Shown: positions 6,088-40,734 of the stretch, one piece after another
Layout: each line of letters opens with the position of its first letter
Numbering within the stretch: position 1 is the first letter of the stretch
Assembly: GCA_003660975.1 (NCBI GenBank)
Contig: QMVG01000007.1
Span: 1 to 42,634, forward strand
DNA: 42,634 nucleotides
Reading direction: 5' to 3'
Source: Candidatus Micrarchaeota archaeon
GTDB taxonomy: Archaea; B1Sed10-29; B47-G15
Position numbers and translations under genes: made by a program
Notes under the pieces: generated by a model
The model's database searches: none
What the model was told of the DNA's origin: nothing
The model's input: the letters and a program-made list of their open reading frames with translations, nothing else

Positions 6088-6143
6088 GAAAACACCCCAT
6101 AAAGCTTTTTAAATAAAAGCTATTTATAGTTTTGGTGTTTTTC

Positions 6144-7085
6144 ATGAAAAAAACAAGGAACGCAAAAAGGACAAGACCTGTGCAAAAGAAGTCAAAAAGC
6201 AAGTCAAGAGCAGTGTACTTCGCGAGCGCTTTAATAGTTGGCATAATACTAGCCACTGCAAGTGTGAGCCCACGCGCAGTAGGCATTATGAAAAGACCAA
6301 GCTGTTCAATGATTGAGGACAGGCCTTGTTACCAGACCGTCTACACATTTAGGAGCGGAAGGAGCATAACACGTGTGTGGAGGAACACAAGGCATGCAGA
6401 GTGGTTTTGGCAGAGGTTCTGCGAGAACAAGAGGCTTGCAAAAATAAGTGAAAATGAAGAGGAAACAGTAATATGTCCTGAAAGCAAGGAGAAGGTTTAC
6501 GACTGCCAGATAGGAAGGTCAAAAAGGCTACACATCCTTAAATATGCTGGAGAATGTAAAGCAGTGGAGATAAATCCGCTAAAACCGCCTAAAGGAAGCT
6601 TATACAATCCAGGCGAGATAAGCATTGAGGGAAACGACAGCTCATCATTAGAAACTAACTGCAAGCCCAAGGCAAAGGAGCAACTTACTGCAATAGAGAG
6701 TTTAGCAAAAGCCCTTGATGAAGACAAAAAAGCAGATGTGTATACAGACCACGGCATAGATGAGGTAACCCATTGGTATTACACAGGAGAGCTTGGAGAT
6801 TACTATATAGATATCCACTTTTACGGGTATATGGACAACGGGGAAGAGCATCAATTCCAGGGAAAGTACACGCTTAGATACAAAGAGGGCACTAAGCAAA
6901 TAGAGAGGCATTACGAAGCTTACTACTGGGAGGACTTACCAAAAGGGGCTTTTTTCAAGGATTATGGCTATAAATTGTACAGCAGTTACAGCGATGGGGA
7001 GAAAAACGAATCATGCGAGTGCAAGGACTACACATTGGGGGACACACCAGCGCGTGTCGGCTGTGAGGGCATCTGCTGTCACTAA
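6144..7085 (+). CDS. Cys-rich membrane-anchored/exported hypothetical protein
   Basis: Long ORF with basic N-tail, hydrophobic segment and 12 Cys; GGTG RBS before ATG 6144. Confidence 0.65.
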   Translation: MKKTRNAKRTRPVQKKSKSKSRAVYFASALIVGIILATASVSPRAVGIMKRPSCSMIEDRPCYQTVYTFRSGRSITRVWRNTRHAEWFWQRFCENKRLAKISENEEETVICPESKEKVYDCQIGRSKRLHILKYAGECKAVEINPLKPPKGSLYNPGEISIEGNDSSSLETNCKPKAKEQLTAIESLAKALDEDKKADVYTDHGIDEVTHWYYTGELGDYYIDIHFYGYMDNGEEHQFQGKYTLRYKEGTKQIERHYEAYYWEDLPKGAFFKDYGYKLYSSYSDGEKNESCECKDYTLGDTPARVGCEGICCH

Positions 7086-7502
7086 TCACCACGGACTAGG
7101 TTCGTAGCTGAGCGAAATGTTAATTGATTTGTCTATTTGATATGAGGAAACACCAACATTTGCCAACTTGCCGTCCACGTAAAAAAGCCAGAACAAACCT
7201 TTTTCCTTATTTTCTTCAACCCCTCCTATTGATGTGATATAAGCACCCATGCCGGGATATGTTTTGTAGCGTAACTCGTCTACATTATCTCTTATGACAT
7301 CAAAGACTGTAGAACCCCTTTCAACAGAAATATTCTTAAAAATATCTTCTCCAGCCCCGTTAAATAAGATTTTTAGGTATACAGTTACATTTCCGCTTTC
7401 ATTATGGGTATTTACTCCTGTGTTTATTGGAAATATATAGAAAAAAAGAAGGGACAATATAACTATGCTAATGAGTAATATTTTGCCTTCCCAATGTTTC
7501 AA
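7086..7502 (-). CDS. Membrane-anchored DUF4430 (transcobalamin C-terminal-like) protein, putative cobalamin-binding
   Basis: N-terminal TM, GSTVFDV...GAYITSIGGVE...FWLFYVDG...VGVSSY motif; overlaps stop of upstream gene. Confidence 0.8.
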   Translation of the reverse strand: MKHWEGKILLISIVILSLLFFYIFPINTGVNTHNESGNVTVYLKILFNGAGEDIFKNISVERGSTVFDVIRDNVDELRYKTYPGMGAYITSIGGVEENKEKGLFWLFYVDGKLANVGVSSYQIDKSINISLSYEPSPW

Positions 7503-10208: not shown

Positions 10209-10760
10209 TCAGTACTCTATTCCTCTTCTTGCTCTCATTCCTTTTTGATAGGAGTGTTTTATTTCTCTCATCTCTGTTACGAGGTCAGCAGCATTTATCA
10301 ATTCCTCTTTTGCTTTTCGCCCTGTTATCACCAACTCAACCTGTTTAGGCTTCTCCTTTATCAAAGACAGCACATCATCAATGGAGATATATCCCATATG
10401 CACCGCCACGTTCAGCTCGTCAAGTATCACCAAGTCATATTGCCCACTCATAATGGTTTTTCTTGCTTCCTTAAGACCTTCCAAGGCCCAATGCTTGTCC
10501 TTGTCAGGGACTGGAGCAAGGCAAGACGGATCTGGTTCACCACTGGGGAGTGCTGGGCATGGCCTGCCGTATTGTTTTACATAAACGCCTAATTTCTTAA
10601 GCGATTTAAGTTCCCCTGAAGGATATGACTTGAGGAACTGAAGCAAGGCAACGTTCAGTGAAGAGCCCCTGGCTCTCACAGCAAGCCCAATTGCGGATGT
10701 CGTTTTTCCCTTGCCATTTCCTGTATAGACCTGGACGATTCCTTTGCTCAAATGTGGCAT
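10209..10760 (-). CDS. cobO: ATP:cob(I)alamin adenosyltransferase (BtuR/CobO/CobA type)
   Basis: VYTGNGKGKTTSAIGLA.RA, QFLK, YDLVILDE, ELVITGR, ADLVTEM..IKH, ARRGIEY. Confidence 0.95.
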   Translation of the reverse strand: MPHLSKGIVQVYTGNGKGKTTSAIGLAVRARGSSLNVALLQFLKSYPSGELKSLKKLGVYVKQYGRPCPALPSGEPDPSCLAPVPDKDKHWALEGLKEARKTIMSGQYDLVILDELNVAVHMGYISIDDVLSLIKEKPKQVELVITGRKAKEELINAADLVTEMREIKHSYQKGMRARRGIEY

Positions 10761-12874
10761 GTTGGGCAGCCCCCTGCATAATCTGCTTCAACTGTTACCT
10801 TGCCATTTTCGTAGCTTATAGGCCCTTGCTTCTCTTTTTCGGATTTGCTCACGCCTATGTTTAGCACCTGCTCTGCCCTTGAGCCATCTCTGTATATCGT
10901 TATGCCCTTACATCCCATCTCATAAGCCATTAGGTATGCTTTTCTAACATCATCAACAGTTGCTGAGTTTGGCATATTGATGGTTTTGCTTACAGCGCTG
11001 TCAACATATTTCTGGAAAACTGCCTGCATCTTGATGTGGTCCTCTGGCTTGATATCAAGAGCAGTGACAAATATTCTTTTAACATCATCAGGTACCTCTT
11101 CCATATCCTGAACAGAACCTTTTGCAGCAATCCTCTCCATTAAGGCCTCTGAATAGAAACCTCTTTCCCTTGCTACCTTTTCAAAGTAAGGATTAACTTC
11201 CAGCATAGGCTCTCCATCAAGTATATTTTTCCTAACAAAGCAGATTGCAAACAATGGCTCTATGCTGCTGCTGCATCCTGCAATAATGCTAGTTGTACCT
11301 GTTGGAGCTATGGTGGTAACAGCTGCATTTCTCATAGGAATTCCCTGCTTTCCATATATGCTCCTGTCCCACGCAGGGAAGTTTCCTCTCTTTTTTGCAA
11401 GCTCCTGCGAGGCCTTGTGGCTCTCTTCTTTTATAAACTTCATCAGCTTTTCAGCTAACTGCAAAGCTTCTTCTGAATCATATGGTATGCCCAATTGAAT
11501 TAACATGTCTGCAAAGCCCATAACACCTAGCCCTATTTTCCTTGTCGTTTTAGACATCTCCTCTATCTGTTTCAGAGGAAACTTGTTCATATCAATAACA
11601 TTGTCCAAAAAGTGAACGCCTTTGTGGACGAGCTCTCTTAACTTATCCCAATTAACATCTCCATCTTTGACGAGCTTGGCCAGGTTTATGTGCCCCAAAT
11701 TGCAAGACTCATATGGAAGTAATGGCTGTTCCCCGCAGGGGTTTGTTGCCTCTATTTCTCCTAAGTCTGGTGTTGGGTTGTGCTTGTTTATTGTATCAAG
11801 AAATATCATGCCAGGGTCTCCGTTCTTCCAGGCCATATTCACTATCAAATCAAAAACCTGCTTGGCGTTCAATTTGCCTACTGGTTTTTTTGTTCTGGGA
11901 TTTATGAGCTCGTAATCTTCTCCTTTCTTCACGGCCTCCATGAACTCATCTGTAGCTCCAACAGAGATATTGAAGTTCGTGAGACTCTTGCCATCCATCT
12001 TGGCAGTTATGAACTCAACTATGTCTGGATGGTCCACGCGCAGCACGCCCATGTTCGCTCCTCTTCTCTTCCCTCCCTGCTTGATCACATCAGTAGTCAC
12101 ATCAAAGACTCTCATAAATGAAACAGGTCCTGAGGCCACGCCTCTTGTGGTCTTCACAACATCTCCTTTTGGCCTTAACCTGGAAAATGAGAAGCCAGTG
12201 CCTCCTCCACTCTGGTGTATCTTGGCAGTGTATTTAACAGCATCAAAGATGCCATCCAAAGAATCCTCAACGGGAAGCACAAAGCAAGCAGAAAGCTGCT
12301 GAATCACTGTGCCTGCGTTCATCAAACAAGGGCTATTGGGTATGAACTCAAAATTAGACATCATATCAAAGAATTCTTCCTCAGTTTTCTTTACATTTGC
12401 GTTTGGGTCATAAAGAAGGTCGGCCTGGGCTATGTTCTTGGCCACTCTCCTAAACATCTCGGCAGGGGTTTCTATAACCTTGCCTGTTAGGTCTTTTTGA
12501 AGATACCTCTTCTTCAAAACGGTCATTGCATTTTCCATTTTCTGAATTTTCTCATTGAGAGCTCTTATCTTTCTCAATCTCGCTCTCTCTTCCCTGTAAA
12601 GTATATATGCTTTCGCAACCTCTGCCTGACCTGCCATTATAAGGACTGTTTCAACTATGTCCTGAATGTCTTCAACACCTGGTATCGTATGCCCATCAAA
12701 CCTGTCCTCCAGCTCTTGAACGACCTTGTCAGTTAATGCTTTTGCAAGCGTTTCATTCTTTTTGCCCACAGCTTCCATTGCCTTCAAAATAGCAATAGTA
12801 ATTTTCGTTGGGTCAAAATCAACGATGTTGCCCTCTCTTTTCCTAATCTGCCTCAAACTGTAATCTACTACCAT
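10748..12874 (-). CDS. nrdJ: Adenosylcobalamin-dependent class II ribonucleotide reductase with N-terminal ATP-cone
   Basis: ATP-cone (IRKREG...VEDIQDIVE), PNSP.LMNAG, QLSACFV, TNPCGEQ, ESCNLG, IAPTGT, VSKTINM, C-terminal CPTC; no intein. Confidence 0.95.
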
Positions 12875-13005: not shown

Positions 13006-13416
13006 TTAACAATTGCGTTGTCTTTCACTGTTTTTGCGCTTCCTGTAGTCTCCTATGGCCTTACGCAGTGCCTCAACAGCTAACACAGAACAGTGAAGTT
13101 TCACTGGAGCTAAGCCGTCCAACTTTTTCAAAACATCATCCTTTGTGAGCTTTTCAGCTTCTTCTATTGTCATTCCCTTTATCATATCTGTGAGAATACT
13201 CGAACTGGAAATCGCAGCCACACAGCCAAATGTTTGAAATTTCACATCTGTTATTACATTGTCCTTTACTTTTATGTAAAGGTACATCACGTCTCCGCAA
13301 ACTGGATTTCCCACTCTACCGATGCCGTCAGCGTCTTTTATCTCACCCATATTGTGTGGATTTCTAAAATGCTCCAAAACCTTTTTTGAATATCTGAATG
13401 CATCCATCTTCATCAA
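13006..13416 (-). CDS. iscU: Fe-S cluster scaffold IscU/NifU-like
   Basis: YS..VLEHFRNP.NMG, GNPVCGD, FQTFGC.AAI, KLHCSVL. Confidence 0.95.
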   Translation of the reverse strand: MMKMDAFRYSKKVLEHFRNPHNMGEIKDADGIGRVGNPVCGDVMYLYIKVKDNVITDVKFQTFGCVAAISSSSILTDMIKGMTIEEAEKLTKDDVLKKLDGLAPVKLHCSVLAVEALRKAIGDYRKRKNSERQRNC

Positions 13417-14588
13417 CCTTTTACATCGTAGTTGTCAAAGCTGTGCTTGAACGGGCTTATCTGCCTCAATTCATCAACGCAAAGCTTAATTTTCTCTACA
13501 GCATATTTTGTTTCCTCCATGCTGTTAAATCTCCCAAAAGTCATTCTAACAGTACCATGTATGATTTTGTGGTCAAGACCTATGGCAGATAAGACATGTG
13601 ATGGTTTTAATGACCTTGAAGAACAAGCACTGCCTGTTGAAACAGCTATCCCATAGTCATCTAATTTGTAAAGTAAGCTCTCTCCCTCAATATACTTAAA
13701 AGTTATATTGGCATTATTGACAAGTCGCCTGTTTGGATTGTCAATACCAGGACCGTTAAGCAAACTGTCTTCTACCTCCAACAGCTCTCTAACAAGATAA
13801 TCTCTCATGCTTTTTATCTTTGAGATCTCATTTGCTGTCATAAGCTCAGCAGCTTTTGCAAAAGCAACTGCTCCAGCCACGTTTTCTGTTCCAGGCCTTT
13901 TGCCAAACTCGTGAGGCCCTCCGTAAAACAGTGGCTCTATTTCAATGCCTTCTCTCACGAACAATGCCCCAACTCCTTTTGGGCCGTGAATCTTATGCGA
14001 AGCCATGCTTATCATATCCACGCCTGTCTTTTTCACATCTATAGGAACTTTTGTAAAGCTCTGCACACAGTCCATATGGAGAATACTCCCTTTATCATGC
14101 ACGATCTCTGATATGGCTTTCATATCTTGAACTGTGCCTATCTCATTGTTGCCGTGAATTATGCTAACCAGGATGACATCGCCACTCAACTCGTCTTGCA
14201 ATGCATCTAGATTCAAGAATCCTTCTGAATCCACTGCTAGCTTTACAACACCAAAACCTCTTTCTTTCACAGCCAACATCGTGTTGTTAACAGCAGGGTG
14301 TTCAATTGTGGATGTTAACAATTTTCCTTTTTTCTTGGCTAAGCATATTCCCTGTATTGCCAAGTTATCGCTCTCAGTTCCCCCAGAAGTGAAAACAATC
14401 TCATTGGCATTTGCATTTATTTTCTTGGCAATGCTTTCCCTTGCTCTCTCAAGCGCCTCTCTTGCCTCTCTGCCAAAAGCATGTAGTGAAGAAGCATTGC
14501 CATAGATGTCCGTGAGATACTTTTTCATCTCTTCAGCAACTGCAGGGTCCACTCTTGTGGTAGCTGCATTGTCTAAATAAACCCTCAT
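13413..14588 (-). CDS. iscS: Cysteine desulfurase IscS/NifS
   Basis: VYLDNAATT, FTSGGTESDN, IEHPAV, NNEIGT, SHKIHGPKG (PLP Lys), STGSACSS; ATG 14588 with GGAGG RBS. Confidence 0.95.
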   Translation of the reverse strand: MRVYLDNAATTRVDPAVAEEMKKYLTDIYGNASSLHAFGREAREALERARESIAKKINANANEIVFTSGGTESDNLAIQGICLAKKKGKLLTSTIEHPAVNNTMLAVKERGFGVVKLAVDSEGFLNLDALQDELSGDVILVSIIHGNNEIGTVQDMKAISEIVHDKGSILHMDCVQSFTKVPIDVKKTGVDMISMASHKIHGPKGVGALFVREGIEIEPLFYGGPHEFGKRPGTENVAGAVAFAKAAELMTANEISKIKSMRDYLVRELLEVEDSLLNGPGIDNPNRRLVNNANITFKYIEGESLLYKLDDYGIAVSTGSACSSRSLKPSHVLSAIGLDHKIIHGTVRMTFGRFNSMEETKYAVEKIKLCVDELRQISPFKHSFDNYDVKG

Positions 14589-14590
14589 AG

Positions 14591-14929
14591 CTAAGCCTCC
14601 AAAAAGTGCTTTCTTTTTGGATTTAGGTATTGCAATATGCCAGCTTTCCAAAGCTTTTGGCATGTGCTACAGAAAAGCTGTTGGTTATCTGCCTCAGCGA
14701 TTTGCTCAACAGCTTCTCTTATTATTTTCATCATGCTCTTGTTCTTGTAAAGTTTTTTAGCTCTCGCTCCCCTGGACATATTAAGATAGTAGGACACTGC
14801 TGCCTGGCTAACACCGAGGTACGAGGCCACTTCTTGCTGTTTAAGGCCCTTCTTTTTCAATTCGGCTGCAAAGACGGCCCTCACAGCAGGCAATATTTCC
14901 TTTGAAACTATCTCACAACGAGTTATCAT
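14591..14929 (-). CDS. Archaeal HTH transcriptional regulator with Cys motifs (COG2522-like)
   Basis: CE.....LPAVRA..A, HTH GLKQQEVASYLGVSQAAVSYYL..RG, C-terminal CSTC. Confidence 0.85.
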   Translation of the reverse strand: MITRCEIVSKEILPAVRAVFAAELKKKGLKQQEVASYLGVSQAAVSYYLNMSRGARAKKLYKNKSMMKIIREAVEQIAEADNQQLFCSTCQKLWKAGILQYLNPKRKHFLEA

Positions 14930-15522: not shown

Positions 15523-15931
15523 TTTTACCACCAGAATGTGATTTTAAAAGATTTTCAACAGGTGGAAGATAAACCCATGATTGTGGTGGCGTAAATTTAG
15601 GATAAATCAGTTTTGGGTCAATAGGCTCTGAAAATTTCTTAACACCTATAATCTCAATTGCAACCCCTTTCCCCATACCAGAAAAGTATGTAAAAAATTC
15701 TTTTTTAGTTAAACCTGAGAGATTTCCGTAATTTTTCCACAGCTTTTCAGGTTTATCTTTTATAATCTTTCCGACATGAAATTTACAAACAATTTTGCTA
15801 ATGGGCTTTGTGGCATAGACCAACACTTCATCAACATCTTTCTTAAAGGGTGCTTTTCTAAACTCATACCTCTTATCCTGTCTCAAAATCGCATCAACAT
15901 ATTTTACTTTAATCGATAGTATAGCGATCAT
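15506..15931 (-). CDS. ASCH/PUA-like domain protein
   Basis: ILSIK.KYVDAIL...KRYEFRK, VYATKP, PE.LW, F..YF, PPQSW.Y. Confidence 0.85.
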   Translation of the reverse strand: MIAILSIKVKYVDAILRQDKRYEFRKAPFKKDVDEVLVYATKPISKIVCKFHVGKIIKDKPEKLWKNYGNLSGLTKKEFFTYFSGMGKGVAIEIIGVKKFSEPIDPKLIYPKFTPPQSWVYLPPVENLLKSHSGGKNDRNK

Positions 15932-17411
15932 TTATTTCCGCCACCTCCTTTATTTTTAGATATTTATTATGAGGAATTTTAATTATCGTTTGTGGGGGAC
16001 CTTTTAAAATTCCATTATCTAAAAGAAAATGATATTTAATTGGCTTCTTAAAGTGCATAATCCACCAAAACAATATAATCTTTGTTGGTTTTTTTGAAAT
16101 TTCTTTGATCTCTGATAATGAGTAAACACTTCTTTTCCCCACATAAGAGACAATTTCAGTTACATTTGTGAGATTGTCATACACTTTTTCTACAATGCCC
16201 AGGGATGTTATTCCCCTTATATCCCCAGACCTATAAAACAATAGGACATCACCGCACTCCATACCTCTAATTCTTGAATGGCATAGATATGCCTTCTTTA
16301 TCGTGTTCCCTTCAACTACGAATTCTCCAGCAGATTCCAATAAGGTGGTTTGTCTTGGCGCATATTCTGTAAATAACCTATTATGCCATTTATCTCTTAT
16401 TGGAATGATGAATTTATTAACTCGATCACCATCATAAAAAGAGGGATAAAATTCTTTATACACTTCTTGTGGTGTATATTTCTTAGATTTGCAGGGAACT
16501 AATTGTTTTATGAAAATATATTCACCGTTCTCTTTTTGTGCTTTAGGCTTAAAACCATATTCTTCTATTAAAGATACAAGAAAATCATTACGTTCTCTGA
16601 AATGAGTCAAATAGACCTCTTCGATATCCTTTTGAATGGCTGTCTGAATGGATATTTTTATGAATAACTCGCCAATCTTTGATCCTCTATCTATGGGGTC
16701 TACCTTTAGAGTGCATATCTTTAACCTTTTTTTCTTTGGTAATGGTCGTCGAATGGAGTTTATAGGTTCATTTTCATCTTTGAGTATAAGAATAGCTCCT
16801 ATTCTACCATTTACAAAATGAACCCGTGCTTTTCTCCCTTCCCTTGAAATCTTTTCCCACCATATCTCAAAATCCTTATAGTCTCTTTTAAGTGAGTCAA
16901 ATATTGGGTCATCCAAATTTAAGTTATATGCTGGGAGATATTTTAATGGTGGCAGAGGCAATATTCTCCTGCCTATCTCTTTTCTAAAGTATTCCAAGGC
17001 CTCACGTATATGGAAAATACGGTCTGCTATTCCAATTTTGATTGCTTTTCTGTGGATTTTCTCATCTTCAGTAATCAAAAAATCTACAGCATTTTTATAA
17101 ACGCAATAGAGCAGATGATTATCGACTCTGTCATGAGCGTTATTAGTTTGTCCTATCAATGATATGAATTTGTCATCCTTTTTAGGACATGGTGGCAGAT
17201 CTATAATAGGGTATGTTTTCAATTTTGAAAGAACTATTTTTCTTCTATCGGCATTTTTATCTTTTTTAATTTCTTCTAATGATGATGGATGAATTACAAC
17301 TTTATGCTCTGTTTCATTTAAAATCCGTAAAAGTTCTTGAACATCATTCGGTACCTCCTTCAGATCTTCCCGATATATTATGATATTAGTATCTATGAGG
17401 ATTCTGGTCAT
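15909..17411 (-). CDS. PIN nuclease + GNAT acetyltransferase + EVE/ASCH-like (PUA-fold) multidomain protein
   Basis: N-terminal ILIDTNIII...EEI...D..L...FLITED (PIN); LKICTLKV...RG.KIGELF...YLT...YGF (GNAT); GNTIKKAYLCHS...GDVLLFYRS...PPQTI (PUA-like). Confidence 0.85.
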   Translation of the reverse strand: MTRILIDTNIIIYREDLKEVPNDVQELLRILNETEHKVVIHPSSLEEIKKDKNADRRKIVLSKLKTYPIIDLPPCPKKDDKFISLIGQTNNAHDRVDNHLLYCVYKNAVDFLITEDEKIHRKAIKIGIADRIFHIREALEYFRKEIGRRILPLPPLKYLPAYNLNLDDPIFDSLKRDYKDFEIWWEKISREGRKARVHFVNGRIGAILILKDENEPINSIRRPLPKKKRLKICTLKVDPIDRGSKIGELFIKISIQTAIQKDIEEVYLTHFRERNDFLVSLIEEYGFKPKAQKENGEYIFIKQLVPCKSKKYTPQEVYKEFYPSFYDGDRVNKFIIPIRDKWHNRLFTEYAPRQTTLLESAGEFVVEGNTIKKAYLCHSRIRGMECGDVLLFYRSGDIRGITSLGIVEKVYDNLTNVTEIVSYVGKRSVYSLSEIKEISKKPTKIILFWWIMHFKKPIKYHFLLDNGILKGPPQTIIKIPHNKYLKIKEVAEINDRYTID

Positions 17412-17694
17412 TTTTACCACCGTATCAATGGCTTAATAAGATTGATAGCCTTATCTAATTCTTTCACAAAGTTGTTACTATGAAGAACTTTATTAATTTA
17501 GATGTTAAAAAACTTGCGTCGCAAGAGAGACATATCTCATAGGCAAGCGTACATTTCAGTTGTGAGAAGGAAGGTCCAATAAAACATCAAGAGAATTTTT
17601 ACCATCCCGTTTGGATAAAAAGCAAAGGGTTTGTTCCTGATGAAGCGAAGATAGAAACCCAATGATTTTTTATTTTTAATGTCTCAACATATGC

Positions 17695-20410: not shown

Positions 20411-21529
20411 ATGGTTGCAAAGAGAAGGAGAGTAAAGGTTGCTATTTTAAGGCCTTTTGAAGACATTAATGGCAAAATAAAAAGCAAGGTTATTCCAATA
20501 AGTGACAAAAGAGTTTTCAACGCAGAAATGCCAACAAAGAAAAGCATGAGAGGGGTCTGGCCCCCGCCAGAAAATGTCGGTAAGCAGGAATACTTGAAAA
20601 CAAAGGAAAAACTGCGTGAGGCACTGTTCAAGGATATTGAAAGCTACTTTGTAAAAAGCAAAATAAAAAACAGAGAAATCCCTGAGGGCAGAGAGTTACG
20701 GAAACTGCTTGCTGAGAGCAAGTTAATTGAGAAGTTAGGCAAGAAGGAGGCTGGAGCGCTGGTAAAAAAGTTCAAAGACCCTGAAGAAGCGCTGGCAGCT
20801 TTCAGGCTGTCCAGCTATAAGAAAGAGAGAGAAAAAATTGACAGCTACCTAAAAAAGCATAGAGGAAACGCAGTAAAGGCATTGCAGGAGCTTGAGCTGT
20901 TCAAAAAGGTTGGAAGCGAGAAAGAAAAGCAAGAGCTAATAAAACGCTTCGGAAGCCTTGAAAGAGCATGGCTATTAACAAAGACAATAAACCCTGAAAA
21001 AAGTCTAAAGAGGTTGAAAGACCTGGAAAAGCAGTACGGAAAGGAAGTGGAAAAGTTGCTTTTGTCTGCTGTATTAAGCGGTGCGAGCCTTGAGGAGAGC
21101 TTGAAGAGCCTTGAAAAGCAAAAGATTAGAAAAGTGACTGCAAAGAAAATAAGAAAGGAGCTGGAAAAAAGCTACAAAGAAGATATGTTGAGAAGGATAA
21201 AAAAAGAGCTTGATGCAGTAGAGAGGGAAATTGCAAAACTGGAGAAAAAACTGAAAAGGGCTGAAAAGGAGGGAGATAAAGACAGGGCAGTTGAGCTAAC
21301 GATAGATATAGCAGATAAGGAAATAGAACTGTTAAAGCTAAGCAACAGGATGATGGAAATCGTAAATGAGCAATTGGGAGGACCTAAGCTGTCAGAGGAG
21401 ATAAAAGAAAAATTAAAGCAAGCAGAGAGAAAGTTAAAGGAAATGGGCATAGACACTGGCAGCATGCCCCCTGACAAAAGAGCATTCTTCCTAAGAAAAA
21501 TGCGTGAAGAATTAGAAAAGAAAAAGTAA
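20411..21529 (+). CDS. K/E-rich helical (coiled-coil) hypothetical protein
   Basis: 372-aa ORF, purine-rich coding strand, no recognisable motif. Confidence 0.7.
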   Translation: MVAKRRRVKVAILRPFEDINGKIKSKVIPISDKRVFNAEMPTKKSMRGVWPPPENVGKQEYLKTKEKLREALFKDIESYFVKSKIKNREIPEGRELRKLLAESKLIEKLGKKEAGALVKKFKDPEEALAAFRLSSYKKEREKIDSYLKKHRGNAVKALQELELFKKVGSEKEKQELIKRFGSLERAWLLTKTINPEKSLKRLKDLEKQYGKEVEKLLLSAVLSGASLEESLKSLEKQKIRKVTAKKIRKELEKSYKEDMLRRIKKELDAVEREIAKLEKKLKRAEKEGDKDRAVELTIDIADKEIELLKLSNRMMEIVNEQLGGPKLSEEIKEKLKQAERKLKEMGIDTGSMPPDKRAFFLRKMREELEKKK

Positions 21530-23602: not shown

Positions 23603-25795
23603 TCACGCTCCTGCATTCCTTCTGTTTCTTATGGCGCTTGTTATTCTCTGTCTTATCAGCGCTGGGTTTAATACATCTTCCTTTTTTATCGTGGCATTTC
23701 TAAGTCTCTCGTCAAGTATGCCCAATCTTCCCTGCCCATACTTCTGCAGTACTTTGCTAATGCCTTTTCTGCTAATTTTTGTTTTTACTGCTGAGCGCCA
23801 TGCCTTTGTTATCCTTTGCCTCAAGGTTGCCTCAACCTGCTTTGCGCCTGTATACTCTGCCTTTGCAGCGCTTAGGTTCTTATTCAAAAGAGCCTTCTGT
23901 GCTTTTATTATCCTATCTCTGTATTCATAGAACTTCCTTCTGATAGCACTTACATCTCCGCCTTTTGCTTTTATTGCTGCCACTAACCTCTCCGCATTCC
24001 TCTCTGCCCTGCGCAGTCTGTTTCTGAGCAATACTCTTTGTTTTTTCAAAAACTCGCTTCTTGACAAGGCGAAGTGCCTCTGTATCTCATTCCTTACTCT
24101 CTTTGCTTCAGTTATATTCCCGCTTTCTATAGCTGAAATATATTTCTGCTTTTCCTCTTCCATTTGCTGTAGCCTGCTTTCCATCAGGCTGACATTCAGA
24201 CCCCTGTTGTAGAGCCTGTTAATCTTTTCCTTCAGCAGACAGATGTGCAGCTCTATTATCTTTCTCTCAACATCTTTCAACTGCTGGACAATGTTTTGCC
24301 ACTGCTCTCTCCTTTCCTGCTTGTAGCTCTCTCTTATCTGCTTTATCCTAGACCTTATCTCATTAGCGTACTGGTCCAAGCCCTCAATTTCATGCGCCTT
24401 GGTCCTGAACTCCCTTATCTTTTCCTTCATCTCTCTAACCAAAGGCTTTAATTCGCCCGCATCGGCATCCTTCATTTCACTTGCAATTGAAGATGCATCA
24501 TGCCTTATGCTTTTCAGCTCAGTGGAGTCTATGCCATATTCATCTGCCACAGCAATGACTGCGTCCATCTCCTCTATGATCTGCTCTGCGTAGAACTTGT
24601 CAAGAGCCGCACCAGCGTTGCTCCTTAACCTAAGGAATGCTCGCCTGCCCTGTCTCATAATCCTCCTCAATTCCTCTGAGCAGACAGATTCCTTTCTCCT
24701 AATCTTAGGAGCTTTTACGACAGACGCAAACAACTCTTCTCCTGATGCCTCACTGCTGTCACACTCTCCAACGTAGTCAACCTCCACTCCTGCTGCCTCT
24801 GCCATACACTCGTTTGAATAGGTTTTTCCGTCAATGCCACAGACAGGGTCATACTCCATGGTGCATGCAACTATTGGAGTTGTGATTACATTAGTTCCTC
24901 CGCCTACTGACGCTGCTGCCCCTGTCTCGCTCTCTGCTGCACCCTGCGATTCCTCTTCAGCGCAGTGATACTCTACTTCAGCAGTAGCAGTCAAAGTATT
25001 CTGGGCTACAAAAGTAGGAGTCACGCTCTTAAGGGTCACAGTAAGCCTTCCTACTTTTACAGAGCTGCCTGTATTTACTGTCTTCTCAACTGTCTGGCCG
25101 TCAGATGTAATCCTAAACTTTGCCTGAGAGGTAGAGGCCAAAAGCAGTTCAACTGAGCCGCAGTCTGTTTTCATTACCTCTCCTACCTTTATGAAAGGGC
25201 CTGATACGCTCAGACACTCATACTCGCAGGAAACAATAACTGTCTGGATGTTTTGCTCTGTGAAGCCTGCCTCTGCTGAGTGGACAGTTATCTTTAAGTT
25301 GCCAATAGTAACTGAGCTTCCTACGTTTACTGTCTTTGTAGTTGTATATCCTCCTGAGCTTATTGAGAAAGTAGCTGACTTTCCAGGTGAAGCTATGTTC
25401 AATGTAAACGAACCGCAGTTTGTATGAACTGTGTCTCCTGCTGTCATTATTGGGTGAGTAGTGCTTGATGCACTTAGACACTCATACTCGTAGGAAACTA
25501 TGCCTGTCTGGATGTTTTGCCCTGTGAAGCCTATCTCTGCTGAGTGGACAGTTATCTTTAAGTTGCCTACGGTAACTGAGCTTCCTACGTTTACTGTCTC
25601 TGTAGCTGTCTGTGCCCCTGAGCTTATTGAGAAAGTGGCTGACTTTCCGGGTGAAACCATATTCAATTTAAATGAACCACAGTTCGTCTGAACTGTGTCT
25701 CCTGATGTCATTATTGGGTGTGCTGCGACTGCTGTCCCTACAAAGGCAAGCAAGACAAGCGCTGTGAAGACCAAAACAGGTCCTCTTAAAGCCAA
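23603..25795 (-). CDS. Secreted multidomain protein: 3 beta-rich repeats + Kazal-type inhibitor domain + long coiled-coil
   Basis: GGAGGTG RBS + TTG; signal peptide; repeats HPIMT.GDTV.TNCGSF...YEC; ACTMEYDPVCGIDGKTYSNEC...GEC; helical C-half. Confidence 0.8.
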   Translation of the reverse strand: MALRGPVLVFTALVLLAFVGTAVAAHPIMTSGDTVQTNCGSFKLNMVSPGKSATFSISSGAQTATETVNVGSSVTVGNLKITVHSAEIGFTGQNIQTGIVSYEYECLSASSTTHPIMTAGDTVHTNCGSFTLNIASPGKSATFSISSGGYTTTKTVNVGSSVTIGNLKITVHSAEAGFTEQNIQTVIVSCEYECLSVSGPFIKVGEVMKTDCGSVELLLASTSQAKFRITSDGQTVEKTVNTGSSVKVGRLTVTLKSVTPTFVAQNTLTATAEVEYHCAEEESQGAAESETGAAASVGGGTNVITTPIVACTMEYDPVCGIDGKTYSNECMAEAAGVEVDYVGECDSSEASGEELFASVVKAPKIRRKESVCSEELRRIMRQGRRAFLRLRSNAGAALDKFYAEQIIEEMDAVIAVADEYGIDSTELKSIRHDASSIASEMKDADAGELKPLVREMKEKIREFRTKAHEIEGLDQYANEIRSRIKQIRESYKQERREQWQNIVQQLKDVERKIIELHICLLKEKINRLYNRGLNVSLMESRLQQMEEEKQKYISAIESGNITEAKRVRNEIQRHFALSRSEFLKKQRVLLRNRLRRAERNAERLVAAIKAKGGDVSAIRRKFYEYRDRIIKAQKALLNKNLSAAKAEYTGAKQVEATLRQRITKAWRSAVKTKISRKGISKVLQKYGQGRLGILDERLRNATIKKEDVLNPALIRQRITSAIRNRRNAGA
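25212..25720. repeat. Intragenic tandem duplication, period 264 bp (units 25212-25456 and 25476-25720)
   Basis: Both units start AGACACTCATACTCG and end GTCATTATTGGGTG, with long identical stretches. Confidence 0.9.
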
Positions 25796-30611: not shown

Positions 30612-31355
30612 TCACAAGCTCTCAACAACACCATCAATTGTTTTTATAGCTATTTCCTTGGTGTACGGCTTGCACTTCTTGGCAATCTCCTTCAATTTTT
30701 CTTCAGAGCTGACCTCCTCAAGCACAGAGGGGTCAACAACAGCTCTTGAAGCATCCAATTGCTGGAGAAGGTACCTATCACAGTTCCTTCCAATGTCTTG
30801 AGCTATCTTGACAATGTCATGCTCGTGAAGTAAAGCAGGAACAAAGGTCGTCTTGCACTCAAAGAAAAATTTCAAAGCAGGTCTTACCTCAAATATTTGC
30901 CTTATGCCTGTTAATACTTTTTCAGGGTCAATGCCTCCTAAAAGCTTTTTGTAATGGTTTTTTCTATGCAAAGGGGCTTTAATGTCAAGAGACAGGTAAT
31001 CCAGAGCGTTTTGAGTGGCCATTTTTATAACAGCCCCTGCATTTTCCCCGTTTGTGTTAAGCTTTATCTTCAGACCTTCCTCTTTAAATGACTTTGCAAG
31101 AAAAATTAAAGCCTCTTCCTGCTCTGTTGCTTCGCCTCCATCAAACGTGACTGCCTCTATAAGCTGCCTCTGTTCCATGACTTGGTTAAAAACATCTTCA
31201 ACAGAGTAATCCTTACATGTCAGAGGGTCTAGAATGTCTTTTTCATAGCAAAAAGGACACCTGTATCTGCAACCTCCAAAGTAAATCACAGCTGACGACA
31301 AGCCAGGCCACTCCAGCGTAGAGACATTAACTATCCTGCCTATTTTAACGTCCAT
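30612..31355 (-). CDS. Glycyl-radical activase-family radical SAM protein (NrdG-like)
   Basis: GCRYRCPFC, GGEAT, KLNTNG, LDIKAP, KTTFVP. Confidence 0.8.
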   Translation of the reverse strand: MDVKIGRIVNVSTLEWPGLSSAVIYFGGCRYRCPFCYEKDILDPLTCKDYSVEDVFNQVMEQRQLIEAVTFDGGEATEQEEALIFLAKSFKEEGLKIKLNTNGENAGAVIKMATQNALDYLSLDIKAPLHRKNHYKKLLGGIDPEKVLTGIRQIFEVRPALKFFFECKTTFVPALLHEHDIVKIAQDIGRNCDRYLLQQLDASRAVVDPSVLEEVSSEEKLKEIAKKCKPYTKEIAIKTIDGVVESL

Positions 31356-31378
31356 AATTATCTTATGCAAAAAGAGGT

Positions 31379-31972
31379 TTATATCTCAACCGTATGTCCT
31401 ATGTCTCTGAGGCTTTTAACCCTTTTTTCATAAGGTCTTTTCTCATACTTTTGCATGTATGCTATAATGAGGATCATAAGCACAAAAAGCAGGAATGCAG
31501 AGACGATGCTGAATTTAAAATTTGTTTCAAGTAATCTTGATATAATCTCTCTCTCCAAGTTAATTGAGAGTTTGCTTAGCAGGGGACCTTCAAAGAGCAA
31601 TTTTACGAGAGACGCATAACAGAAAAGAATCAAAGAGCTGATGGCCGAACTTATCTTCACAATTTGCAGTATGGCCTTTGCCTTTCTCTCTGAGAGGTAT
31701 GTCAGCACGAAGATTATGAACGAGAGGGCAAGAGAAATGAGGAAAAGGTCAATGCTGAGGTTGTAAATCTCAAACATAGAGTTTTCGAATACCAAAAGAA
31801 AAGCAAGCGGCCCCAAAAATGCATATGCCTGCTCAACTATTCTGCTTTCAACAAGCTGCGAGCTGTCATATTCTCCCAATATATTTAAGCTTTCAGTAGC
31901 AATTGCAAAGCTAAGGAATGCCAAAATGGCAATAATCAGGAAAACTGTTGAAAGCAGATGTGCAAACCTCAT
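31379..31972 (-). CDS. Multi-pass membrane protein
   Basis: 4-5 hydrophobic segments. Confidence 0.65.
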   Translation of the reverse strand: MRFAHLLSTVFLIIAILAFLSFAIATESLNILGEYDSSQLVESRIVEQAYAFLGPLAFLLVFENSMFEIYNLSIDLFLISLALSFIIFVLTYLSERKAKAILQIVKISSAISSLILFCYASLVKLLFEGPLLSKLSINLEREIISRLLETNFKFSIVSAFLLFVLMILIIAYMQKYEKRPYEKRVKSLRDIGHTVEI

Positions 31973-36558: not shown

Positions 36559-36633
36559 GCCTCGGTAGCTTAGCCCGGTTAAAGCGCGCGGCTGTTAACC
36601 GCGAGACCGCCGGTTCAAATCCGGCCCGAGGCG
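36559..36633 (+). tRNA. tRNA-Asn (GTT), intronless, CCA not encoded
   Basis: Acceptor GCCTCGG/CCGAGGC, D-arm GCTT/AAGC, anticodon arm CGCGG-CTGTTAA-CCGCG, T-loop TTCAAAT. Confidence 0.97.
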
Positions 36634-36669
36634 CTTAAAGATTTATATAAAAAATTTCTTATTCTCACG

Positions 36670-37470: not shown

Positions 37471-38658
37471 GTGTTGAGAATGAGGTATGAAACAAGGCTT
37501 TGCGCGTTGAAATTCGCCCTCTCCTTCGGGATTTCCGGAGCGTTAGCAGTGCCTCTTCTCACGCTGTGGGGAGGTCTGAGCCTCACAGAGGTATTCCTTT
37601 TGCAGACCTGGTACAGCGTGCTTGCTGTGGCATTTGAGATTCCAACAGGCAGCATTGCTGACAAAATAGGGAGAAAGAAATCGCTGCTGCTAGGCTCTGT
37701 GCTTTCTGCACTAGCATGCGTTGTTTACGTGAGCTACCCTGCATTTGCTGTCTTTGCCCTTGGAGAACTGCTCTTCGCAGTTGGAGCAGCTCTCAACTCA
37801 GGAGCAGCAGAGGCATTTGCATACGACTACCTAAAAAGGACAGGCAGAGATATGCACTCCTTGGGGCTTTTCTCCAAGATGAGAGCTGCCTCAGTAATAG
37901 CGCATATACTGGCCCTGCCTCTTGGCACTGGCATAGCTTCCCTGCTGCCTTTCCCTATGAGCCTGAGAATGCCAATGTTTTTGACAGCACTGCCTTTCAG
38001 CATAGCAGCAATTGTGGCACTATCAATGAAAGAACCTGAATTAAGCGGCAGGGGAAAAGCATACCTGACCCTGGTAAGGAAAGGTCTGACATATCTAGTG
38101 AGGCACGAGAAATTAAGAGCGCTAGCAATAGACAAAGCAAGCATCTCTGCTGTGGCTTTTATGATGTTCTGGCTATACCAGGCCATACTAATGAAATACA
38201 ACCTGCACATATTCTGGTTTGGTGTGCTGGCTGCAGTGTTCAACATAGCTGGCGTAATAGCTATAGGCATCTTGGTGAAAGCAGAGGACAAATTAGGGCT
38301 CAAGAATACCCTAAGTGCTACATCTCTGATAATAGGCTTGTCTTACATAGCTACCAGCTTAGGCATAGTGCCCATTGCTGTGTTGGGAATTACAGTGGTG
38401 ATATCTCTAAAACTTGGAAGAGAGCCAATATTTGACCACTACATGAACAGGCATATAGCTTCTGAAACAAGGGCAACTGTGCTCTCTGCAGTATCAATGC
38501 TCCAGAGGCTGTTGATATCACTGCTCTACGTGGTTGTTGGAGTACTGGCAGACATGTCTCTGGAAGGGACATTAGTGGTCCTAGGCGTAGCTGCCATGAC
38601 ACTTGGTTTAGCATCAAGAGTGAGAGAAGAAAAGCTGGGCGTAGAAAACAGCAGATGA
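37471..38658 (+). CDS. MFS transporter
   Basis: FEIPTGSIADKIGRKKS (motif A), SGA..A..YD.L, RATVLS; about 12 TM; start GTG 37471 or ATG 37480. Confidence 0.9.
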   Translation: MLRMRYETRLCALKFALSFGISGALAVPLLTLWGGLSLTEVFLLQTWYSVLAVAFEIPTGSIADKIGRKKSLLLGSVLSALACVVYVSYPAFAVFALGELLFAVGAALNSGAAEAFAYDYLKRTGRDMHSLGLFSKMRAASVIAHILALPLGTGIASLLPFPMSLRMPMFLTALPFSIAAIVALSMKEPELSGRGKAYLTLVRKGLTYLVRHEKLRALAIDKASISAVAFMMFWLYQAILMKYNLHIFWFGVLAAVFNIAGVIAIGILVKAEDKLGLKNTLSATSLIIGLSYIATSLGIVPIAVLGITVVISLKLGREPIFDHYMNRHIASETRATVLSAVSMLQRLLISLLYVVVGVLADMSLEGTLVVLGVAAMTLGLASRVREEKLGVENSR

Positions 38659-38669
38659 GAAGGCCACCC

Positions 38670-38693
38670 TAGGGGGCATTCGCCCCCTATTTT
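38670..38693 (+). terminator. GC hairpin + T-run terminator-like structure between convergent genes
   Basis: TAGGGGGC-ATTC-GCCCCCTA followed by TTTT. Confidence 0.65.
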
Positions 38694-39967
38694 ATCTTCA
38701 TTAAATTCTTCCTAAGGCACGATAGCGCAAGTGGCTTTATTATTGGATTCTTTTCATCCTTGATTCTCTTCCAGACATCATAATCAAGCAAATTCTCACA
38801 AGAGATGCCTAATTCATCACAGGCTTGCTTCACGGCCTCATAGCTCTCTGTATACTTCATGTAGGCATATACTCTTTTGTAATGCTTCCTGTGGGCTTCC
38901 AAATATTTCCTAACCCTGTCTTTTGTTACAGCAATGTACTCTTTCATCAGCTCCTCTGTCTCCTCCCACTCAGGCCAGTCATAGGCATTAAAAGGATGAT
39001 TGTCTGAAAACTCTATTGGAACCACGCCAGGTGTGCTTACAACTACCCGGTGTATTCTTGGAAATATTTTAAGTTTGGATATTGTTTTGTATATGGCTTT
39101 GTGCGTTGATGATGATGTGTACGGCTTCTTAAAGGAACATGGAAGGAAAAGGAGGATGTCCTTGCCTTTTGGGGCTTTGTAAAACCTCTGGAAGTAATCC
39201 TGCCATACATTGAAGTAAGGGTGCTTCAGGTTCTCCACAGAAGCTCCCTCTATCAGCAGCTGCTTCTCAGCTGGAAACTTTGGTCTGAATGCGTAGTTTT
39301 GGGCATCTGTTTCTATTTTTGGATTGTCTTTGTAAGGCGCTACGATTTCTTCAAACTCCTCAGGAGAGAGAGGCCTCCACTTCCCATTTACCCAATCATC
39401 AAAGAGGGGGGCCTTGGAATGTGGGAATGTATTTATCAAAACTATTGAGTCACTGTATTTCAGAGCAAAGTTAACGCTCTTCTCCAAATCTTTTTTGATG
39501 TCCTTAGAAAAGGGCATATTTACCATGAGATATGTTCTCACCTTGCAATTGTTCCTGTGCAATGTCTCAACTGCTTCAAGATAGTGTTTTATCCTAAATG
39601 GTTTTTGGTATTTCTCAAGAATCTCATCATCCGCGACTTCAAGACCTATGGCCACTGTTAGGTTCAAACCCTTGAAGGTGCTTAAGTTTTCATCTGTTAT
39701 GTATTGAGGTATCGACTCTATTATAAGGTTTTTGACGCCTTTGCTTTTGAGCTGTTTAGCAAACCAGTCCCTGAACTCCAATGGAAATTGCTTGTCATCA
39801 AGAAAAGAACCGCTTGAAAAGACTTTTACGGTGCTGTCCAAATTTAAAGACTCCACTTGCTTCTTCATTTTGTCTATGTCAACAGGGAACTCTAGCCTTC
39901 CCCAGCCACAAGCGTAGCACTTTCCCCATGAGCACTTTCCAGAAGACAGTATGATAACAGTTGTCAC
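38687..39967 (-). CDS. Fusion of RaSEA-like radical SAM domain (TIGR01210-like) and ArcS-like DUF5591 domain; candidate archaeosine synthase
   Basis: N: VIIL...CSWGKCYACG, VKVFSSGSFLD, IES.P.YI, VAIGLE, K, TYL...P, W..G..RP; C: LLFLPCSFKKPYTSSSTH, VVS.P.GVVP.E, YDWP. Confidence 0.8.
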   Translation of the reverse strand: MTTVIILSSGKCSWGKCYACGWGRLEFPVDIDKMKKQVESLNLDSTVKVFSSGSFLDDKQFPLEFRDWFAKQLKSKGVKNLIIESIPQYITDENLSTFKGLNLTVAIGLEVADDEILEKYQKPFRIKHYLEAVETLHRNNCKVRTYLMVNMPFSKDIKKDLEKSVNFALKYSDSIVLINTFPHSKAPLFDDWVNGKWRPLSPEEFEEIVAPYKDNPKIETDAQNYAFRPKFPAEKQLLIEGASVENLKHPYFNVWQDYFQRFYKAPKGKDILLFLPCSFKKPYTSSSTHKAIYKTISKLKIFPRIHRVVVSTPGVVPIEFSDNHPFNAYDWPEWEETEELMKEYIAVTKDRVRKYLEAHRKHYKRVYAYMKYTESYEAVKQACDELGISCENLLDYDVWKRIKDEKNPIIKPLALSCLRKNLMKIK

Positions 39968-40734
39968 TGCCTCACCTGCTTGTATAGCGATCTTAGATCA
40001 TTGATATCAAGAGAGCGCACTTTTCTCGTGTCATTTATCTCCTTGGAAAAGGCAATCTTAACTGCGTTTTTCACGTCTTTATTCTTGTATCTAAAAAGCT
40101 CCCTGACAAAGTCATCAAATGCCTTATCCTTCTCAACACCTTTTTTCCTCAATCTGATAACAGCACTGTCAACCTTTGGCATTGGGTAAAAAGAGGATTT
40201 ATTGACTACTTCCATCATTTTGGCATCATAATAGTAATTGACCATTACGCTCAATCTCCCGTAATCTGGGTCTCCTGCTCCTGCAAGCATCCTTTCAGCA
40301 AACTCTTTTTGGTATGTAATGACTGCCAAGTCAAAGTCATAATCTAAAAGCTTGAATGTTATTGGAGCGCTTGCACTGTATGGAATGTTCGAAACTACCT
40401 TCGTGAATGAAGGCAGCTCCACTTTCAAGAAATCATCAAAAATAAAGTCAATGTTTTCATAAGCTGAAAGCTCGCTTTTTAACACTGGCTCCAATCTCCT
40501 GTCCTTTTCAACAGCGATTACTTTAGCTGCTTTCTCAGCTATCTTCCCGGTCAAGAAACCAAGACCTGGCCCTATTTCAAGAACAACATCGTCTTCTTTC
40601 AGCTCTGCATATCGTATCATCCTGTCAATAAAGCCCTCGTTTATTGCAAAGTACTGGTCCAAAACAGGAGATGCTCTAAAATTATATTTAGCCTCTATCG
40701 TTCCAATTCTGGACTTCAGGTCCATCCCAATCAC
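39964..40734 (-). CDS. rsmA: 16S rRNA m6,2A dimethyltransferase KsgA/RsmA/Dim1
   Basis: VLEIGPGLGFLT, VEKD, VSNIPY, QKEFAERM, YGRLSV, F.P.PKVDSAV. Confidence 0.95.
   Translation of the reverse strand: MIGMDLKSRIGTIEAKYNFRASPVLDQYFAINEGFIDRMIRYAELKEDDVVLEIGPGLGFLTGKIAEKAAKVIAVEKDRRLEPVLKSELSAYENIDFIFDDFLKVELPSFTKVVSNIPYSASAPITFKLLDYDFDLAVITYQKEFAERMLAGAGDPDYGRLSVMVNYYYDAKMMEVVNKSSFYPMPKVDSAVIRLRKKGVEKDKAFDDFVRELFRYKNKDVKNAVKIAFSKEINDTRKVRSLDINDLRSLYKQVRQ

Follow-up and report, generated by a model that had tools for sequence, protein, structure and literature searches.

A RaSEA–ArcS fusion protein of Micrarchaeota and other archaea, a candidate single-chain archaeosine synthase

The fusion gene and its product

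The gene considered here lies in a 42,634-nucleotide stretch of DNA (contig QMVG01000007.1 of the Candidatus Micrarchaeota archaeon assembly GCA_003660975.1), the whole of which is referred to below as the window. It occupies positions 38687..39967 (−), stop codon included, as a single unbroken frame of 426 codons with a GTG start; an earlier reading of the bare sequence (the original prediction) had described one uninterrupted open reading frame (ORF) of 426 amino acids, and translation of the interval agrees. The open frame reaches just ten codons beyond the GTG in the upstream direction (436 residues), and the N-termini of the family agree with the GTG start in an alignment of homologues. 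Judged by Pfam and NCBIfam matches and by an AlphaFold2 model, the 426-residue protein is a fusion of a domain resembling RaSEA, the radical S-adenosylmethionine (SAM) β subunit of archaeosine synthase, with the C1 core (DUF5591) of ArcS, its α subunit, and it probably makes archaeosine (G+) in tRNA as a single chain. The motifs on which the original prediction had based the same identification (CSWGKCYAC, SGSFLD, ES.P, AIGLE, W..G..RP and PCSFKKPYTSSSTH) were all found in the translation, and the profile searches that it had proposed, against TIGR01210 and DUF5591, matched both models; no other family matched either half better.

The compact RaSEA-like domain comprises residues 1–230 (39278..39967, −) and is recognized by Pfam, by NCBIfam and by its fold. 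Pfam Radical_SAM (PF04055) matches residues 24–156 with 44.2 bits (gathering cut-off 29.5), and the top NCBIfam match of this half is TIGR01210 (RaSEA, archaeosine synthase beta subunit), with 104.5 bits over residues 2–199 and profile positions 15–229 of 313. The runners-up, Elp3 (30.2 bits) and MnmL/YtqA (28.3 bits), are more than 70 bits behind. Three cysteines, C12, C17 and C20 (CSWGKCYAC, 39908..39934, −), form a Cx4Cx2C triad that presumably binds the radical SAM [4Fe-4S] cluster, and they are invariant in 86 aligned family members. This spacing is found in all 12 fused representatives, whereas most stand-alone RaSEAs have Cx7-9Cx2C.

The ArcS C1 (DUF5591) domain comprises residues 253–426 (38690..39211, −). 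DUF5591 (PF17884) matches residues 255–391 with 64.2 bits (gathering cut-off 26), and in NCBIfam this half is matched best by two models of ArcS, NF053620 with 69.5 bits and NF040592 with 64.8 bits, the latter covering residues 221–390 and profile positions 247–409 of 575. The motif PC-X3-KPY-X2-S-X2-H, defined as the ArcS C1 motif in two papers (PMC10516641, PMC5699537), is intact between P276 and H289 (39101..39142, −), where it reads PCSFKKPYTSSSTH; C277, K281, P282, Y283 and S286 are invariant in the 86 aligned members. The original prediction had noted that the TGT-like N-terminal region and the PUA domain of ArcS are missing, and Pfam and NCBIfam scans of the protein accordingly gave no match to the TGT-like N-domain, to C2 or to PUA.

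The RaSEA-like half is trimmed as well, a feature absent from the original prediction. This was seen in an alignment of five fused proteins and the fused-length protein P0133, which has a degenerate C1 motif, with five stand-alone RaSEAs, four of which score 355–381 bits on TIGR01210 and the fifth 273 bits. The full-length RaSEA architecture, with its C-terminal Cys-rich module, is not matched by the fusion; the association with ArcS takes the form of a RaSEA-like domain covalently joined to ArcS C1 within one ORF.

The two domains are connected by a bridge of residues 231–252 (39212..39277, −), in which the block-mean predicted local distance difference test score (pLDDT) is at least 82 and G241, L247 and H249 are nearly invariant in the same 86 members. 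Structure prediction, which had also been proposed, gave a confident two-domain AlphaFold2 model from an alignment of these 86 sequences, with a mean pLDDT of 95.8, a predicted template modelling score of 0.89 and no segment below 50, and the model suggests that the fusion would form one rigid two-domain body. In structural searches with VIA-align, model residues 1–230 show a radical SAM fold, with Z-scores of 15–19.5 against numerous radical SAM enzymes of known structure. The nearest solved fold, for model residues 1–225, is the queuine lyase of Clostridium spiroforme (6p78; Z 19.5, root-mean-square deviation (rmsd) 2.8 Å, 205 residues aligned, 23% identity), followed by viperin (Z 17.8) and Elp3 (Z 16.5). 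Queuine lyase is likewise a compact radical SAM enzyme, and its structure includes bound SAM and the 7-deazaguanine compound queuine; it differs in standing alone and in having a free base as its substrate, whereas the N-domain of the fusion is RaSEA-like by sequence, and the common fold does not establish a common function. The C-terminal domain (model residues 253–426) is closest to AF0587, a protein of Archaeoglobus fulgidus whose structure was deposited without an assigned function (PDB 2q07; Z 15.2, rmsd 2.6 Å, 138 residues aligned), which is also the best PDB match by sequence (phmmer, E 1.3e-8). AF0587 is a 306-residue stand-alone protein without a radical SAM domain, and it aligns with the fusion only in part. 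No title of an ArcS–RaSEA complex occurred among the matches listed in the two structural searches of the PDB copy, and a paper from 2024 states that structural work on the ArcS–RaSEA complex with tRNA is still needed (PMC11298593).

Archaeosine pathway genes in the genome of the window

The genome to which the window belongs (1.33 Mb in 130 contigs, 89.66% complete) has one gene of the TGT family, which encodes an arcTGT of 561 residues (TIGR00432, 494.3 bits against a cut-off of 350) with TGT, C2 and PUA domains and a weak C1; the DpdA model reaches 39.7 bits on this protein (cut-off 200). TIGR01210 and DUF5591 are each matched at the fusion locus and nowhere else in the genome. The original prediction had expected an arcTGT gene in the genome together with the lack of separate arcS, raSEA and queF-like genes: the first is present, and none of the others was found in this 89.7%-complete genome.

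Genes for de novo synthesis of preQ0, the 7-deazaguanine precursor, were not found either. Profile searches of the genome gave no match for QueD, FolE or FolE2 (QueE was not searched for genome-wide), none for QueF (PF14489, a model whose sensitivity for QueF-like proteins was unverified by controls) and none for QueC, Gat-QueC included (PF06508), for which only the PP-loop heads of ThiI-like and TtuA-like proteins were found; the weak QueC matches on contig C5 were rejected as PP-loop enzymes of these two kinds. A second radical SAM gene in the window (30612-31370) was considered as a QueE candidate and rejected, as it matches the NrdG2-type activase model with 145.5 bits (cut-off 131.15) and the QueE models with 30 bits or less. 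A transporter of the Vut_1/YhhQ family is encoded in the genome (130.9 bits); in Escherichia coli, YhhQ transports preQ0.

The presumed substrate class is exemplified in the window by a tRNA-Asn(GTT) gene at 36559..36634 (+), which reads A14-G15, in agreement with the nearby G15-bearing tRNA-Asn of the original prediction, and A14-G15 is present in 42 of the 48 tRNA genes of the genome. The IscS/IscU-type genes that had been suggested as a possible source of the iron–sulfur cluster are also in the window, as a NifS/IscS-like desulfurase gene (13413-14663) and a NifU_N/IscU-like gene (13006-13416).

The tRNA genes of two short contigs with dense tRNA arrays stand apart. On contig C109 of genome G000, six tRNA genes are packed into about 620 nucleotides, several of them with A15 instead of G15, and contig C108 carries two identical tRNA-Arg(GCG) genes. 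These arrays, unlike the other tRNAs of the genome, could be a mobile element or binning contamination.

Distribution of the fusion

A word-indexed search with the fusion protein returned 279 proteins at E ≤ 1e-3, with homologues down to E = 2e-204, far beyond chance; the best 120 of the 279 are 396–457 residues long, and 116 of these 120 contain both Pfam domains. An exhaustive search, the matches of which include stand-alone RaSEAs, C1-only proteins and canonical ArcS, gave 850 matches at E ≤ 1e-3, 156 at E ≤ 1e-10 and 28 at E ≤ 1e-30. Clustering of the full-length fusions at 50% identity left about a dozen representatives. The homologues are named “DUF5591 domain-containing protein”, “radical SAM protein” or “hypothetical protein” in their sources, and “archaeosine synthase” on two JGI entries. 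In the species-representative collection, 142 of the 153 pattern matches encode a relative, which places the family in at least 142 genomes. The streamlined fusion of the original prediction is thus borne out as an architecture, but not as a singular event, as it belongs to a widespread family.

The carriers are mainly titled as DPANN lineages and Altiarchaeota, with some Thermoproteota. For comparisons of loci, 80 loci were kept from the same collection; their DPANN record titles are Micrarchaeota, Iainarchaeum, Aenigmatarchaeota, Woesearchaeota, Nanoarchaeota, Nanohaloarchaea and Parvarchaeota, and the other titles are Altiarchaeota/Altiarchaeales, several Thermoproteota lineages, Methanomethylicota, Culexmicrobium and one Asgardarchaeum. 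Viral contigs gave 13 pattern matches to the family query and 0 confirmed relatives, and a viral or DNA-modification role was rejected on this count.

In the phylum of the window, the fusion is present in 26 of 31 species genomes, and none of the 11 with a completeness of 90% or more is without it. ArcTGT is likewise present in 26 of the 31, and the two occur together in 24; the four discordant genomes are 61–81% complete. A single DUF5591 match was found in each of the 26 fusion genomes. The fusion, DUF5591 and arcTGT are all missing from the three genomes of genus g21 (G024, G025 and G026; 84–89% complete), a pattern suggestive of a clean loss of the entire pathway for position 15 at the level of the lineage; as the three genomes are kin, this absence counts as one co-loss event and not as three.

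Fused and canonical forms were also compared in three other phyla. In that of the Altiarchaeia-titled genome, a RaSEA match was found in 46 of 61 genomes, 0 of them over the cut-off; nearly all of these matches are confined to the first ~200 profile positions, and the frames that hold them are ~430–470 residues long. In that of the Aenigmatarchaeota-titled genome, a RaSEA match is present in 8 of 61 sampled genomes, again with 0 over the cut-off. In that of the Asgard-titled genome (G032), by contrast, canonical RaSEA exceeds the cut-off in 56 of 101 sampled genomes, and a fused-type match was found only in the starting genome, so the idea that the fusion is the general non-euryarchaeal form was rejected. 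No RaSEA over the cut-off was found in five representative fusion-bearing genomes from five lineages. Fused and split forms largely replace one another by lineage, the fusion being the predominant form in DPANN-type and Altiarchaeota genomes. The split ArcS/RaSEA system was described in the Euryarchaeota; as a separate observation, it is also common beyond them, because canonical RaSEA is present in those 56 of 101 sampled genomes (G036–G133).

Gene neighbourhood

ArcTGT lies in the 6-kb flank of the fusion in 22 of the 80 loci, spread over several lineages; when the count is confined to the 48 loci with 5 kb or more of sequence on either side, 15 have it there. It directly adjoins the fusion in nine of the 80, divergently in seven (with 23–68 nucleotides between the genes) and co-directionally in two. 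In the latter, both Thermoproteota-titled, arcTGT is immediately downstream, with frames that overlap or are 17 nucleotides apart (L079:5983-8968 and L083:5983-8974), an arrangement which suggests that fusion and arcTGT are translationally coupled at these two loci.

In the window, the fusion sits at the end of a block of ribosomal and RNA-processing genes, and the gene upstream of it encodes KsgA/RrnaAD (39964..40734, −; PF00398, 179.5 bits), the stop codon of which shares four nucleotides with the fusion start, as the TGA stop and the GTG overlap in GTGA. The coupling to ksgA that the original prediction had drawn from this overlap holds for the window, but not as a general trait: ksgA is immediately upstream in 3 of the 71 loci with at least 900 nucleotides of upstream sequence, all close relatives, and is therefore lineage-specific. 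An L21e–RpoF–DUF655 block lies within 6 kb in nine of the 80 loci. The ksgA coupling was rejected as a general functional clue on these counts. A gene of the MFS family downstream of the fusion (37471-38658) was dropped as a candidate precursor transporter, as no relative of it occurs beside the fusion in the 80 loci.

Other fusions of the same partners

The same two families are combined in other ways. P0217 (497 residues) has an ArcS C1–C2–PUA part followed by RaSEA, P0146 (680 residues) a C1-like stretch followed by RaSEA, and P0129 (635 residues) RaSEA, a long insert and C1, in the order of the window protein. P0143 carries an unassigned N-terminal part of 316 residues ahead of its RaSEA-like domain. 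Some of these four may prove to be fragments or mistaken gene calls.

The radical SAM domains were also placed on a quickly computed maximum-likelihood tree (80 rows, 221 columns, midpoint root, fragment P0206 left out), with the Shimodaira–Hasegawa-like approximate likelihood ratio test (SH-aLRT) as the only support measure. All 12 fusions with the order radical SAM domain to C1 fall outside a 56-row clade (SH-aLRT 93) that holds every stand-alone RaSEA with Cx7-9 spacing, and P0146 and P0217 stand at separate places inside that clade. The same two partners thus seem to have been fused more than once, and repeated independent fusion, with the opposite order in P0217 and P0146, is a classical sign of a functional pair, arguing that the two domains work together. 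A single origin of the family with the radical SAM domain first is compatible with the tree but is not claimed, because the deep branch that unites the fused side has a support of 43.

P0133 (424 residues) and P0141 (337 residues) form a divergent pair (SH-aLRT 100) with Cx3Cx2C spacing. The C1 motif of P0133 is degenerate and has no PC...KPY; the two may represent a fused form with changed or lost lysine transfer.

Proposed function

The fusion is probably a single-chain archaeosine synthase that acts after arcTGT on a salvaged precursor. In work on Thermococcus kodakarensis (PMC11298593), ArcS is reported to move lysine onto preQ0 at position 15 of tRNA, RaSEA to turn the adduct into G+, and ArcS to be active only in complex with RaSEA. 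In the pathway proposed for the organism of the window, preQ0 would first be taken up, here probably by the YhhQ/Vut_1 transporter, salvage being proposed because no de novo preQ0 genes were found. The full-length arcTGT (TGT, C1, C2 and PUA) would then exchange G15 of tRNA for preQ0. The C1 half of the fusion would join the ε-amine of lysine to the nitrile, giving a preQ0–lysine adduct, and the radical SAM half, using SAM and a [4Fe-4S] cluster bound by C12, C17 and C20, would cut the C–N bond of the lysine, leaving the formamidine of archaeosine. The chemistry of the last two steps is assigned by homology with the T. kodakarensis ArcS–RaSEA complex. The same paper also reports in vitro activity of ArcS on the preQ0 nucleoside and on its 5'-monophosphate (PMC11298593). 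As ArcS acts on such small substrates, its RNA-binding domains are dispensable for the chemistry, and a covalent C1–RaSEA unit without them is therefore plausible as a complete enzyme.

Several findings weigh against this proposal. Both halves score well below the equivalog cut-offs of the families to which they are assigned, the RaSEA half with 104.5 bits against 212.15 for TIGR01210, and the C-terminal half with 64.8 bits against 440 for NF040592 and 69.5 against 600 for NF053620; the canonical RaSEAs P0180, P0193, P0196 and P0226 reach 355–381 bits, and the canonical ArcS P0224 reaches 443.5 bits on the ArcS model. The first cysteine spacing of the fused RaSEA half is Cx4 and not the Cx7-9 of canonical RaSEAs, and this half is without their N-extension of ~40 residues and their C-terminal Cys-rich module (NCxxC...CxC). 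Pfam and NCBIfam scans of the fusion revealed no recognizable RNA-binding domain. With the genome of the window at 89.7% completeness, a stand-alone RaSEA or ArcS gene may lie in the missing part, and the unverified sensitivity of PF14489 applies to the absence of QueF-like genes. Genes that would account for precursor supply are also scarce in the phylum, as QueC (TIGR00364) is present in one of the 31 genomes (G000–G030) and YhhQ/Vut_1 in three; with arcTGT and the fusion in 26 each, most members would need another precursor route.

The sub-threshold scores, the altered cysteine spacing and the missing RaSEA modules, among them the Cys-rich one, together with the position of the fused forms outside the 56-row canonical clade (SH-aLRT 93 in a quick tree), could be read as signs of an enzyme of the arcTGT pathway that uses another donor, a non-lysine amine, or makes another 7-deazaguanine product at position 15. 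A viral C1-only homologue of ArcS is tied, in PMC10516641, to the unexpected product dCDG and not to dG+, which would fit such a shift. This, the main alternative, seems rather improbable, given that the ArcS C1 motif and the cysteine triad of the SAM cluster are strictly conserved, that the QueC/Gat-QueC and QueF profiles found no other G+-forming enzyme in the genome, and that the standard product is the simplest reading of an arcTGT kept together with the fusion. A change of substrate, to free preQ0 as base, nucleoside or nucleotide, or to 7-deazaguanine in DNA as in ArcS2–DpdA systems, is very unlikely: the fusion has no PUA or other RNA-binding domain, the T. kodakarensis ArcS takes the preQ0 nucleoside and 5'-monophosphate in vitro (PMC11298593), and the phage C1-only ArcS2 acts on DNA (PMC10516641), but the recurrent neighbour of the fusion is a PUA-bearing arcTGT over the TgtA equivalog cut-off, on which the DpdA model falls far short (39.7 against 200). 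The fusion moreover behaves as a core gene in the high-quality genomes of the phylum (11 of 11), stands at the end of a ribosomal and RNA-processing gene block in the window and has no confirmed relative among the 13 pattern matches on viral contigs.

The most distant alternative is an unrelated radical SAM enzyme whose likeness to RaSEA and ArcS would be no more than a resemblance, and which would take no part in 7-deazaguanine chemistry. The equivalog scores are all sub-threshold, which leaves some room for it, but DUF5591 is over its Pfam gathering score with the diagnostic motif intact, the co-occurrence, co-loss and neighbourhood all involve arcTGT, and the same two domain families have been fused independently elsewhere; we regard it as having hardly any chance of being correct. 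Archaeosine synthesis by the fusion, in a single chain and after arcTGT, is accordingly kept as the probable function.

An extension of this function would have the fusion dock on arcTGT and take the preQ0-tRNA while it is still held by C2 and PUA, in a two-protein channel, so that arcTGT may provide the tRNA grip that canonical ArcS has itself. The nine of 80 loci in which arcTGT tightly adjoins the fusion, and the co-occurrence and co-loss of the two, speak for docking. T. kodakarensis ArcTGT does not co-purify with ArcS (PMC11298593), which speaks against it. A complex prediction for fusion and arcTGT gave a weak pass, with a median of 0.37 (runs of 0.37, 0.00 and 0.47; best of three controls, 0.00); partner pLDDT was at least 83, the runs agreed in at least 0% of contacts, and the interface differed among the three. 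Of 80 solved complexes, 58 attained the same mark, as did 2 of 110 mismatched pairs; at 0.60 or less it was attained by only 7 of the 80 and by both mismatches. These counts hold only roughly here, as the prediction used custom alignments, matched and 23 rows deep. A pass as weak as this one is wrong in more cases than it is right, and it was not used for the proposed function; docking itself is a doubtful proposition.

Relation to known systems

The closest known system is the ArcS–RaSEA of T. kodakarensis, in which the α subunit is a lysine transferase and the β subunit a radical SAM lyase. It has the same two catalytic families as the fusion, the same C1 motif and likewise a radical SAM cysteine triad; both would act downstream of arcTGT, and an obligatory association of partners is made covalent in the fusion. 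The difference is one of two proteins (~575 and 313 profile positions) against one chain of 426 residues. Compared with canonical ArcS, the fusion is without the TGT-like N-domain, C2 and PUA, and compared with canonical RaSEA it is without the N-extension and the Cys-rich module, has Cx4Cx2C in place of Cx7-9Cx2C, and scores below the cut-off in both halves.

The phage and virus protein ArcS2, a C1-only DUF5591 protein that works with DpdA on DNA, is likewise cut to the ArcS C1 core (PMC10516641), but it has no radical SAM domain, is virus-encoded and has a DNA target, whereas the fusion family neighbours arcTGT. The QueF-like and Gat-QueC enzymes of Crenarchaeota carry out the same step, from preQ0 to G+, according to PMC5699537; their folds are unrelated to the fusion and neither was found in the genome of the window (PF14489, PF06508). 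Elp3 is a neighbour of the N-domain in sequence and fold and has the same Cx4Cx2C spacing, but it carries a GNAT domain and modifies U34, and the 30.2 bits of the fusion on its model stand against a cut-off of 350.

No description of a RaSEA–ArcS fusion was found in the open literature, the founding papers of 2010, 2012 and 2019 and their supplements being outside the search, and the term “TIGR01210” did not occur in the literature searched. Archaeosine synthesis by ArcS and RaSEA is known; the architecture in which both partners are trimmed and fused is a distinct variant, missed by the NCBI equivalog models. The fusion would be unsurprising in principle to a specialist, and as a minimal enzyme it would serve studies of structure and mechanism.

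Other features of the window

Some other genes of the window are unusual or poorly annotated. An ORF of 730 residues at 23603-25795 (−) has as its sole match a short Kazal-type protease-inhibitor domain (residues 310–334), which is unusual for an archaeon. Two further ORFs are large and poorly annotated: 7499-9658 (−; 719 residues) has DUF4430 and a prenyltransferase-like α–α toroid, and 15909-17420 (−; 503 residues) an N-terminal PIN_3 domain. The ORFs 20411-21529, 6132-7085 and 31379-31972 have no Pfam match. A ribonucleotide reductase large chain with an ATP-cone is encoded at 10748-12874 (−; Ribonuc_red_lgC, 492.6 bits), and the gene for the NrdG2-type radical SAM activase (30612-31370, −) is 18 kb away from it; activases of this type normally partner a glycyl-radical (class III) reductase.

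Significance

If the fusion is active as proposed, the minimal catalytic unit of archaeosine synthesis would consist of ~230 residues of radical SAM core and ~175 residues of ArcS C1, and what the canonical enzymes have in addition, TGT-like, C2 and PUA domains in ArcS and a Cys-rich tail in RaSEA, would be accessories. The fusion would also be a natural single-chain construct for determining the structure of the ArcS–RaSEA catalytic pair. Should the proposal be true, a function could be assigned to a family now named “DUF5591 domain-containing”, “radical SAM” or “hypothetical” in at least 142 species genomes. Genome-reduced archaea retain arcTGT and the fusion without preQ0 synthesis, a pattern that points to another salvage route for a 7-deazaguanine precursor and to strong selection for G+15.

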